This document shows positions 63,593-63,858 of a DNA stretch of 64,000 nucleotides, one piece after another. Below the pieces are notes generated by a model that was not told the DNA's origin, searched no databases, and saw nothing but the letters and a program-made list of their open reading frames with translations. The translations under genes were made by a program, and so were the position numbers. Position 1 is the first letter of the stretch, and the number at the start of each line of letters is the position of its first letter. Source of the DNA: a virus (lineage: Duplodnaviria; Caudoviricetes); the IMG/VR virus record IMGVR_UViG_3300025129_000005; one strand, given 5' to 3'.

Positions 63593-63858
63593 AAATTATG
63601 GGATGTTGGCTTAGAAGCAGCCATCATTTAAAGAGTAGGGCAAGCGCATGATGTTGTGGCAATTAGGTTGGTAGGAAGGGCATCCAATGACCAACTGAAC
63701 GGACGAACCAAAAGTTTGATCTCGCTAAATCAAATGAAACGGTATTTGGGTGGCTCCCATAAGTCCTAGCGGCACATGAGTCCACGTGGTAAAGTGAAAC
63801 GGCACCCCAGAAATGGTAAGGCTGAATCCCCTTTTGGCGTAATAGCACACCATAATTT
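63593..63858 (+). ncRNA. RNA reproducing the 23S rRNA uL11-binding domain (H43-H44) with a 200-nt insert
   Basis: GGATGTTGGCTTAGAAGCAGCCATCATTTAAAGAGT (63601-63636) ... GCGTAATAGCACAC (63837-63850), closed by a 9-bp helix AAATTATGG/CCATAATTT. Confidence 0.8.

Follow-up and report, generated by a model that had tools for sequence, protein, structure and literature searches.

A free-standing, split copy of the 23S rRNA GTPase-associated centre in a large family of phage RNA genes

Near the end of a 64,000-nucleotide (nt) stretch of DNA from an uncultured phage (Duplodnaviria; Caudoviricetes; IMG/VR record IMGVR_UViG_3300025129_000005), referred to below as the window, two short pieces of sequence match the GTPase-associated centre (GAC) of bacterial 23S ribosomal RNA (rRNA). 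The locus raises the question of whether a phage can carry a ribosomal domain as an RNA gene of its own and, if so, what that RNA would do. We find that window positions 63591 to 63861 (+ strand) are the gene of a stable, structured phage RNA belonging to a very large family, which we call split-GAC RNA. An earlier reading of the same sequence, here called the original prediction, had proposed a stand-alone phage RNA that reproduces the uL11- and thiostrepton-binding domain and is not host rRNA; the covariation and conservation described below fit the GAC fold and support that proposal.

The split copy of the GAC runs from 63593 to 63858 (+). Positions 63601 to 63634 are an exact 34-nt match to Salmonella 23S rRNA at Escherichia coli positions 1055 to 1088 (blastn-short, E = 2.9e-15; E. 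coli numbers are used for ribosomal positions throughout), and the match grows to 36 nt, with GU as the next bases, against 23S rRNA of the Gram-positive type reading AAAGAGU, as in the Paenibacillus phage stretch described below (L004). The sequence GCGTAATAGC at 63837 to 63846 is an exact 10-nt copy of 1091 to 1100 and is followed by ACACC, which corresponds to 1101 to 1105. The half bearing the loop of helix 44 (H44) lies 200 nt downstream of the helix 43 (H43) half, and the gap extends from 63637 to 63836. The ends are joined by a 9-base-pair (bp) closing helix, P1, formed by AAATTATGG (63593 to 63601) and CCATAATTT (63850 to 63858); P1 stands in place of helix 42 (H42), and its last two pairs are 1054:1105 and 1055:1104. 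Pair 1054:1105 is kept as G63600-C63851 and pair 1090:1101 as U63636-A63847, both being A-U in E. coli. Between the two strands of P1 lie the H43 copy (1057 to 1081; 63603 to 63627) with A1067 at 63613, the 1082 to 1086 turn followed by the 5' strand of H44 (G1087, A1088, G1089 and U1090; 63628 to 63636), and, beyond the insert, the top and 3' strand of the H44 hairpin (G1091 to C1104; 63837 to 63850) with A1095 at 63841. The H43 stem-loop with its A1067 loop and the H44 hairpin with its GUAAUA loop are both exact copies, and the tertiary-core set is complete: U1060-A1088, 1082:1086, and G1071 and C1072 with 1091:1100 and 1092:1099.

No rRNA was matched by Rfam in the window, positions 63400 to 64000 gave no Rfam match of any kind at E ≤ 10, and blastn-short found no further 23S similarity in the insert or flanks beyond the two GAC pieces. 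A weak likeness of a hairpin arm in the insert to 23S rRNA near position 985, with 3 mismatches, was given no credit. The original prediction had named a 36-nt and a 14-nt likeness to 23S rRNA, pair-preserving changes at 1054:1105 (G-C) and 1090:1101 (U-A), a new 9-bp closing helix and the absence of any other rRNA sequence, and each of these points agrees with what we found, the likeness being 34 nt exact to Salmonella or 36 nt to the Gram-positive type, plus the 10 exact nt and ACACC. It did not dwell on the 200-nt split, which is the hallmark of a large family and not an oddity of this locus. It also missed the insertion at U1090/G1091, a UUUG linker, the size of the family and the usual setting among transfer RNA (tRNA) genes.

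A search of phage genomes for an isolated GAC domain, which the original prediction had suggested, returned at least 209 loci with the split-GAC architecture, drawn from IMG/VR contigs, genome contigs and cultured-phage records. Both of our IMG/VR scans give lower bounds, and the family figures refer to the matches listed. The scan with a family-specific 3' motif found at least 117 stretches, and the batch built on it holds 107 loci, cultured phages and the window included, with the 5' half 104 to 412 nt upstream. The 5' motif is common to real rRNA and served as an unbiased probe; scanning with it found at least 115 stretches, and the newly fetched loci comprised about 80 split in the same way, one unsplit mimic and no real 23S rRNA. 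Bacterial and archaeal genome contigs gave 117 matches, most of them chance matches, as expected for a 17-mer in 596 Gb, and about 28 true split members, mostly on contigs of metagenome-assembled genomes (MAGs), which may be prophages or misbinned phages. About 20 cultured phages carry a split-GAC RNA. By blastn against the phage collection, the full layout, with no annotation beneath it, was found in Aeromonas phage 4_4572, in Pseudomonas phages Astolliot, Milchi and UNO-G1W1, and in the giant phages XacN1, GAP32 and XaC1. A permissive search matched the 5' half in pf16, CBB, Serratia phage BF, Erwinia pEa_SNUABM phages, Kaldavass, Yersinia phages fHe-Yen9-03 and -04, XbC2 and one Vibrio phage; these were judged on the 5' half alone, except CBB, where our covariance model matched the whole RNA. 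Members come from phages that infect Pseudomonas, Aeromonas, Xanthomonas, Enterobacterales and Vibrio, and from many uncultured lineages. The family has no entry in Rfam 15, where the window RNA gave no match at gathering thresholds or at E ≤ 10, and we found no description of it in the searchable open-access literature.

We built that covariance model, R1, from 39 short, diverse members with the window left out. R1 matched the window RNA end to end (model positions 1 to 171 of 171, delimiting the whole RNA at 63591 to 63861) with 98.0 bits and E = 3.8e-27, against 46.8 bits (L129) and 54.7 bits (L004) for real 23S rRNA. We rejected a bacterial 23S gene or gene fragment as an explanation of the window RNA: its halves are 200 nt apart, there is no flanking 23S sequence and no large-subunit rRNA match in Rfam, and its R1 score is twice that of real 23S rRNA. 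R1 found a single copy in the window; complete carrier genomes likewise have one each as a rule. Two contigs, viral or MAG, carried two split-GAC genes each (L155 and L246); in L155 (5122 to 5711) they form a tandem pair about 320 nt apart with the H44 loops GUAAAA and GUCAUA. A different kind of locus, L133 (3707 to 3823 of an IMG/VR contig), is an unsplit GAC mimic in which H43 and H44 are contiguous across a divergent junction, GCUUAAUCAAC, and it scored 38 bits on R1. L004 is Paenibacillus phage Pd_22F (region 83380 to 84012 of its record), which carries an unannotated, contiguous stretch of Bacillus-type 23S rRNA. Being contiguous, this stretch was rejected as a split-GAC member; its two candidate origins are host DNA caught up in the assembly and a piece of rRNA that the phage captured.

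The fold of the RNA is supported by covariation in two alignments, one of 26 sequences of the window subfamily (RNAalifold) and a wider one of 97 distinct sequences aligned to R1. RNAalifold on the subfamily recovered P1, the base and top of H43, H44 and a hairpin arm of the insert, with compensatory changes in 8 of the 9 P1 pairs; all eight of the P1 pairs in the model change on both sides in the wider alignment. Across the 97 sequences, 91.3% of cells in paired columns could pair, compared with 67.4% after shuffling and 36 to 48% with partners slid by 1 to 3 columns, and the covariation score was 0.473, compared with 0.120 after shuffling and 0.06 to 0.12 with slid partners. None of 500 shuffles attained the observed pairing and covariation values. 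Beyond the helices, the 1082:1086 pair of the turn covaries (U-A in 74, C-G in 48 and A-U in 15 sequences), 1057:1081 covaries between A-U and C-G, 1058:1080 takes all four Watson-Crick types, and 1055:1104, within P1, covaries between G-C and A-U. Covariation supports every helix and the tertiary pair 1082:1086; the window's long insert arm is a single-sequence prediction.

We measured the conservation of each half in members retrieved by the other half, which avoids circularity. G1059, U1060, G1063, U1066, G1071, C1072, A1077 and C1079 were 100% conserved in members found with the 3' probe, A1084, A1085 and A1088 (95%) were also invariant or nearly so, and G1091, C1092, G1093, U1094, A1098, G1099 and C1100 were 97 to 100% conserved. 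On paper, A1088 pairs with the invariant U1060. We take the conserved core positions to be those that, in the L11-RNA crystal structures (reportedly of Conn et al. and Wimberly et al., 1999), build the pairs U1060-A1088 and 1082:1086 and the base triples of G1071 and C1072. As judged from the sequence, these core contacts probably form in the window RNA as well. Position 1061, which is variable in natural rRNAs, also varies in the family. A1067 was 82% conserved and replaced by G in 15%, A1095 was 90% conserved, and 1096 and 1097 were variable. Compared with rRNA, constraint is looser on the loop bases contacted by factors, tRNA and thiopeptides, as would suit a ligand for which the fold matters more than those bases. 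Together, conservation and covariation at the level of the fold indicate that the family is selected for its tertiary fold and not for sequence alone. About 1 in 10 members carry an extra hairpin after A1077, in the 3' strand of H43 (L018, L044, L062, L081, L086, L087, L063, L036, L099, L103 and L124), which marks a second tolerated insertion point.

The structure of the insert between U1090 and G1091 (200 nt, 63637 to 63836, +) was predicted with a constrained fold, and parts of it show covariation and conservation of their own. It is closed by a helix, AGGG/CCCT (63637 to 63640 with 63829 to 63832, +), in which all four pairs covary among the 97 sequences. A long irregular arm is predicted from the single sequence at 63644 to 63781 (+) and is followed by a conserved hairpin arm at 63800 to 63824 (+), composed of CGGC/GCTG, an invariant AC/UAAG internal loop and CCA-GAAA-TGG. 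CACCCC and GGTAAGG of this arm are invariant in all 26 subfamily sequences, and the flanking and stem pairs covary; the subfamily consensus (63800 to 63828) is G-N-C, AC opposite UAAG, a 3-bp stem and a GNRA or UMAC tetraloop, flanked by the linkers AAGUR and GAAU. The insert ends in the UUUG linker (63833 to 63836, +; TTTTG in the window), whose U, U, U and G were 90, 97, 89 and 84% conserved in members found with the 5' probe. L133 is the sole unsplit copy recovered; all other copies are interrupted between U1090 (95% U) and G1091. The window has A1101 (A63847) opposite U1090 (U63636), a trait of the family. Counted from the 5' motif up to where the 3' motif ends, members span 71 to 412 nt, which corresponds to inserts of roughly 30 to 370 nt, and insert content varies by subfamily; the middle of the window insert had no likeness in any fetched locus. 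Whatever the host, members have the same insertion site and share U1090, A1101 and the linker, which points to a probable single origin followed by spread among phages and not to repeated capture of host rRNA.

A few members of 356 to 386 nt carry a copy of the sarcin-ricin loop (SRL) in their inserts, exact in L123 as AGTACGAGAGGA (AGUACGAGAGGA) and as near matches in L052 and L040. These three unite both rRNA elements of the factor-binding site. We found no SRL-like motif in the window RNA or in most members.

Among the 209 listed loci, 91 (44%) had a tRNA gene on the same strand within 100 nt and 130 had one within 1 kb; in Aeromonas phage 4_4572, Astolliot and UNO-G1W1 a tRNA gene begins 14 to 33 nt after the RNA. 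We found no recurring protein family beside the RNA among about 210 loci, and no uL11 gene in five complete giant phage genomes that carry it. In the absence of a phage partner gene, the partner is probably a host component. The commonest protein neighbour, present at 10 of about 210 loci (for example at 8339 to 9676 in L077), was a CCA-adding tRNA nucleotidyltransferase with a PolyA_pol head and an HD domain; this fits a region for RNA maintenance in these phages.

The window copy, unlike the typical copy among tRNA genes, stands alone behind its own promoter-like site. The TTGACT-17-TATCAT sequence that the original prediction read as a promoter lies at 63548 to 63576 (+) and agrees with 10 of 12 consensus positions, the evidence being consensus match alone. 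The start expected from it is at about 63583 to 63586, 7 to 10 nt ahead of P1. The region held 7 promoter-like sites against 4.1 expected from shuffles, so that such a site is weak evidence by itself; a twin, TTGACT-17-TATGAT, lies at 63206 to 63234, ahead of the upstream open reading frame (ORF). Downstream, fold prediction indicates a structured element at 63861 to 63955 (+), a stem of 17 bp that branches at its top, and RNA-library contigs extend into it as far as 63936 and 63949. Folding 63855 to 64000 gave a z score of -7.55, and none of 200 shuffles folded as well. This element is probably on the same transcript as the GAC RNA, where it would be a candidate for 3' protection or for a second domain. 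A perfect 11-bp hairpin at 63973 to 64000 (+), truncated where the window stops, is a candidate terminator.

The RNA-seq check suggested in the original prediction found exact copies of the locus in RNA libraries. Contigs of aquifer metatranscriptomes cover 63628 to 63949, 63678 to 63936 and 63653 to 63850 exactly; they come from three metatranscriptome runs, probably of one sampling campaign. The insert, the 3' half and the downstream element therefore occur together in RNA libraries. These contigs support expression of the split-GAC RNA, short of proof, as they give no strand, ends or abundance. Positions 62000 to 63540 had no cover in RNA runs and 48x in one DNA run, a difference that we do not count as evidence of RNA excess or of the absence of DNA carry-over. 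The huge depth over 63601 to 63636 stems from the rRNA of other organisms and is uninformative for the window RNA.

What might such an RNA do? The reading that we favour, with moderate confidence, is that split-GAC RNA is a decoy acting in trans that would bind the host ligands of the GAC fold, first of all uL11. The two ends of the RNA rebuild the 58-nt GAC, with copies of H43 and H44 set upon a generic closing helix; the insert departs from H44 at the U1090/G1091 junction by a helix of its own and comes back by the conserved UUUG. Folded like the ribosomal domain, the RNA would capture host proteins that recognize such a fold. At the head of the candidates stands uL11, which reads the shape of H43 with its C-terminal domain; translational GTPases that contact A1067 and A1095 are possible further ligands. 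Produced at a high level, usually alongside phage tRNAs, the RNA could serve as a decoy or sponge in trans, so that ligands would be drawn off host ribosomes or the real site shielded from attackers. One speculative outcome would be ribosomes poor in uL11 that cannot activate RelA. We base the decoy reading on constraints at the level of the fold, as for a protein that reads shape, together with the lack of a phage partner gene and a genomic context of abundant, stable RNAs. Binding of uL10 as in the ribosome, which the original prediction had included, is doubtful. The part that replaces H42 is a plain helix in which every pair varies freely and no H42-specific surface is conserved, and uL10 requires elements of H42. 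A precedent for binding in trans is the work of Munishkin and Wool (1997), cited in PMC5829649, whose title states that EF-G binds oligoribonucleotides mimicking the thiostrepton and sarcin-ricin domains.

Several points weigh against this decoy reading. The ligand is proposed from likeness alone. Ribosomes are very abundant, so that a sponge would need a high copy number or a small free pool as its target. The insert at U1090/G1091 and UUUG have no counterpart in rRNA and could alter or block an interaction of the ribosomal type, and RNAalifold prefers to pair the G and U of the linker with C1102 and A1103, which would rewire the base of H44. Folded as a single sequence, the roughly 270-nt RNA (63585 to 63870) gave a minimum free energy with a z score of +1.05, no better than shuffles, so that free energy by itself lends the fold no support. 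The RNA gene stands apart from tRNA genes here: within the sequence, which stops at 64000, the closest one lies 55 kb upstream and ends at 8376.

Two rivals share the idea of mimicry and change its target. The RNA could be a decoy or pseudo-substrate for toxins of host defence or of competitors that modify or cut H43 or H44, protecting the ribosomes that the phage needs, much as phage tRNAs replace or outcompete the victims of anticodon nucleases. A toxin with a GAC target exists: Tre23 ADP-ribosylates H44 of 23S rRNA at 1095 to 1098 and blocks EF-G (PMC8661411). The usual place among phage tRNA genes, the SRL, a classic toxin target, in some members, and the lack of a phage protein partner all suit this account. 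The free variation of 1096 and 1097 and the 90% conservation of A1095 are odd for an exact bait, the decoy would have to compete with tens of thousands of ribosomes against a catalytic enzyme, and we know of no anti-phage system that targets the GAC. We regard a toxin decoy, which the original prediction had also raised, as plausible and do not favour it over protein sequestration; on balance it is unlikely. Alternatively, the mimic could act mainly on translational GTPases (EF-G, EF-Tu, IF2 and RF3) or on RelA-tRNA and not on uL11, by capturing factors or driving futile GTP hydrolysis, with or without host stalk proteins. The few long members with AGUACGAGAGGA (found in L123, and nearly so in L052 and L040) speak for this, as do the EF-G binding to isolated thiostrepton-domain and SRL oligonucleotides named in the title of Munishkin and Wool (1997; cited in PMC5829649), the binding of SRL RNA by IF2 and EF-G according to PMC3496166, and the stacking of A1067 on the elbow of RelA-bound tRNA according to PMC5829649. 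The window RNA and most members have no SRL-like motif, however, and A1067 is replaced by G in 15%. Factors also bind isolated pieces of rRNA weakly, and we consider a mimic aimed mainly at GTPases quite improbable.

The other alternatives concern the nature of the locus itself. The 200-nt insert might be an intron, following U and ending in G as group I introns do, that is spliced to leave a GAC mimic of about 66 nt. Its boundaries are conserved (U1090 in 95%, the last insert base G in 84%), but no intron family matched at E ≤ 10 in Rfam, and the RNA-library contig 63628 to 63949 is unbroken over the 3' boundary; no joined form is listed among the RNA-library contigs, from which rare spliced forms could escape. 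Some members have spans of 71 to 104 nt, leaving inserts of about 30 to 60 nt, far below the size of a group I intron, and the insert has its own covarying helix right at the junction, which is the geometry of a three-way junction. Splicing is therefore very improbable. A leader of the ribosomal-protein type, regulating a downstream gene in cis through a stalk protein as the L10 leader does, is just as hard to credit. Mimicry of rRNA by mRNA leaders is known from ribosomal-protein autoregulation, and the window sequence ends at 64000; against this, the family's neighbours are tRNAs and unrelated small ORFs and not ribosomal-protein genes, none of the five complete carrier genomes has a gene for uL11, the structure is self-closed, and a tRNA comes straight after it in other phages. 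No conserved downstream ORF with a start occluded by the structure was seen. Least probable of all, to the point of being negligible, is an assembly artefact in which host 23S reads were joined to phage DNA through the 34-mer, a case that the original prediction had named among its refutations and that our results do not bear out. Logan DNA contigs do break within the rRNA-identical 34-mer (the X1 contig ends at 63630). However, the 5' strand of P1, which precedes the 34-mer, pairs perfectly with a 3' strand 250 nt beyond it, non-rRNA sequence follows the 34-mer, 99% of the words of 63200 to 64000 occur in 21 DNA runs, and the architecture recurs in at least 209 loci and in the finished genomes of about 20 cultured phages.

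The phage of the window is an uncultured, T4-like giant phage with genes for gp32, clamp loader, UvsW, family B polymerase and RNR and 35% G+C. Its DNA occurs in aquifer and spring metagenomes, and megablast of 40000 to 60000 against the phage collection found no close relatives. The window holds 15 tRNAs and a GOLLD RNA (Rfam RF02032, scoring 177 bits where the gathering threshold is 150) at 3300 to 3729 (+), within the tRNA array and between tRNA-Lys (1850 to 1925) and tRNA-Ser (3830 to 3913), so that this phage has two large structured RNAs. The two ORFs upstream of the GAC RNA matched no Pfam family. The UvsW-like helicase ORF (45237 to 46190, -) ends in a Hint/intein splicing domain (Pfam PF01079 and PF14890), which suggests that the helicase gene is interrupted by an intein and continues in a neighbouring ORF. 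The ORF at 53874 to 54836 (+) matches the Mom family (PF25680, E = 7.6e-14), a hint that this phage may modify its DNA bases.

Among known objects, the ribosomal GAC comes nearest to the phage RNA; among known principles, the mimicry of rRNA by ribosomal-protein leaders does. With the bacterial GAC (H42 to H44, 1051 to 1108) the phage RNA shares the 34-nt H43 identity, the GUAAUA loop, A1067 and A1095, the paired covariation at 1082:1086, 1057-1059:1079-1081 and 1055:1104, and the conserved core nucleotides. The ribosomal domain is part of a 2.9-kb rRNA, whereas the phage RNA is a separate gene of about 270 nt in which H42 has become a generic helix, H44 is split by a 200-nt insert and UUUG, 1090:1101 is U-A, and positions 1096 and 1097 may vary across the family. 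Ribosomal-protein leaders, above all the rplJ L10 leader (Rfam RF00557), are likewise extra-ribosomal mimics of stalk-base rRNA that bind a stalk protein, as the phage RNA would. They act in cis, in the 5' untranslated region of their own operon, and resemble rRNA loosely; the phage RNA is near-exact, self-contained and encoded by phages among tRNA genes, with no ribosomal-protein gene nearby and no Rfam match. The decoys 6S RNA and CsrB/RsmZ imitate, in trans, the natural ligand of a host protein, as the phage RNA would, and to our knowledge no known decoy imitates an rRNA domain. Phage tRNAs, GOLLD and ROOL share the tRNA-cluster context and likely co-expression; neither GOLLD nor ROOL resembles rRNA, and both assemble into cages on their own. 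Synthetic 'ribosome-in-pieces' RNAs, isolated thiostrepton and sarcin-ricin RNAs that bind EF-G in vitro according to the title of Munishkin and Wool (1997), are similar in kind. Those oligonucleotides are laboratory constructs, whereas the family consists of natural, conserved genes with an extra domain, present in RNA libraries, the window copy being without the sarcin-ricin element. More tentatively than the decoy reading, we suggest that the family may serve large phages of many bacterial phyla as a natural 'ribosome-in-pieces': a stable RNA that would recruit uL11, and in some lineages stalk proteins or, with the added SRL, GTPases, into a free ribonucleoprotein mimicking the factor-binding site. 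Such a particle might reprogram translation control, for example by blinding RelA-dependent signalling or disarming toxins of the GAC or SRL.

The novelty of the family rests on its absence from Rfam 15 and from the searchable open-access literature, the general principle being known from operon leaders. Among the parts of the translation machinery that viruses are known to supply are tRNAs, translation factors and a few ribosomal proteins. An rRNA functional centre that is copied as a conserved, expressed RNA standing on its own would add to these a class of viral RNA and a way of interfering with translation that are both new, and if the 'ribosome-in-pieces' proposal is true, it would be the first viral mimic of an rRNA domain. 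Its large size, at least 209 loci, and its broad host range make it unlikely that the family is marginal, and because cultured carriers have laboratory hosts, its role is open to direct test. What the window contributes is a member that lies away from tRNAs behind a promoter-like site of its own, together with a defined arm of its subfamily and evidence from RNA libraries. The family as a whole is a natural mutational survey of the GAC fold freed from the ribosome, and it shows where H44 tolerates an insertion.

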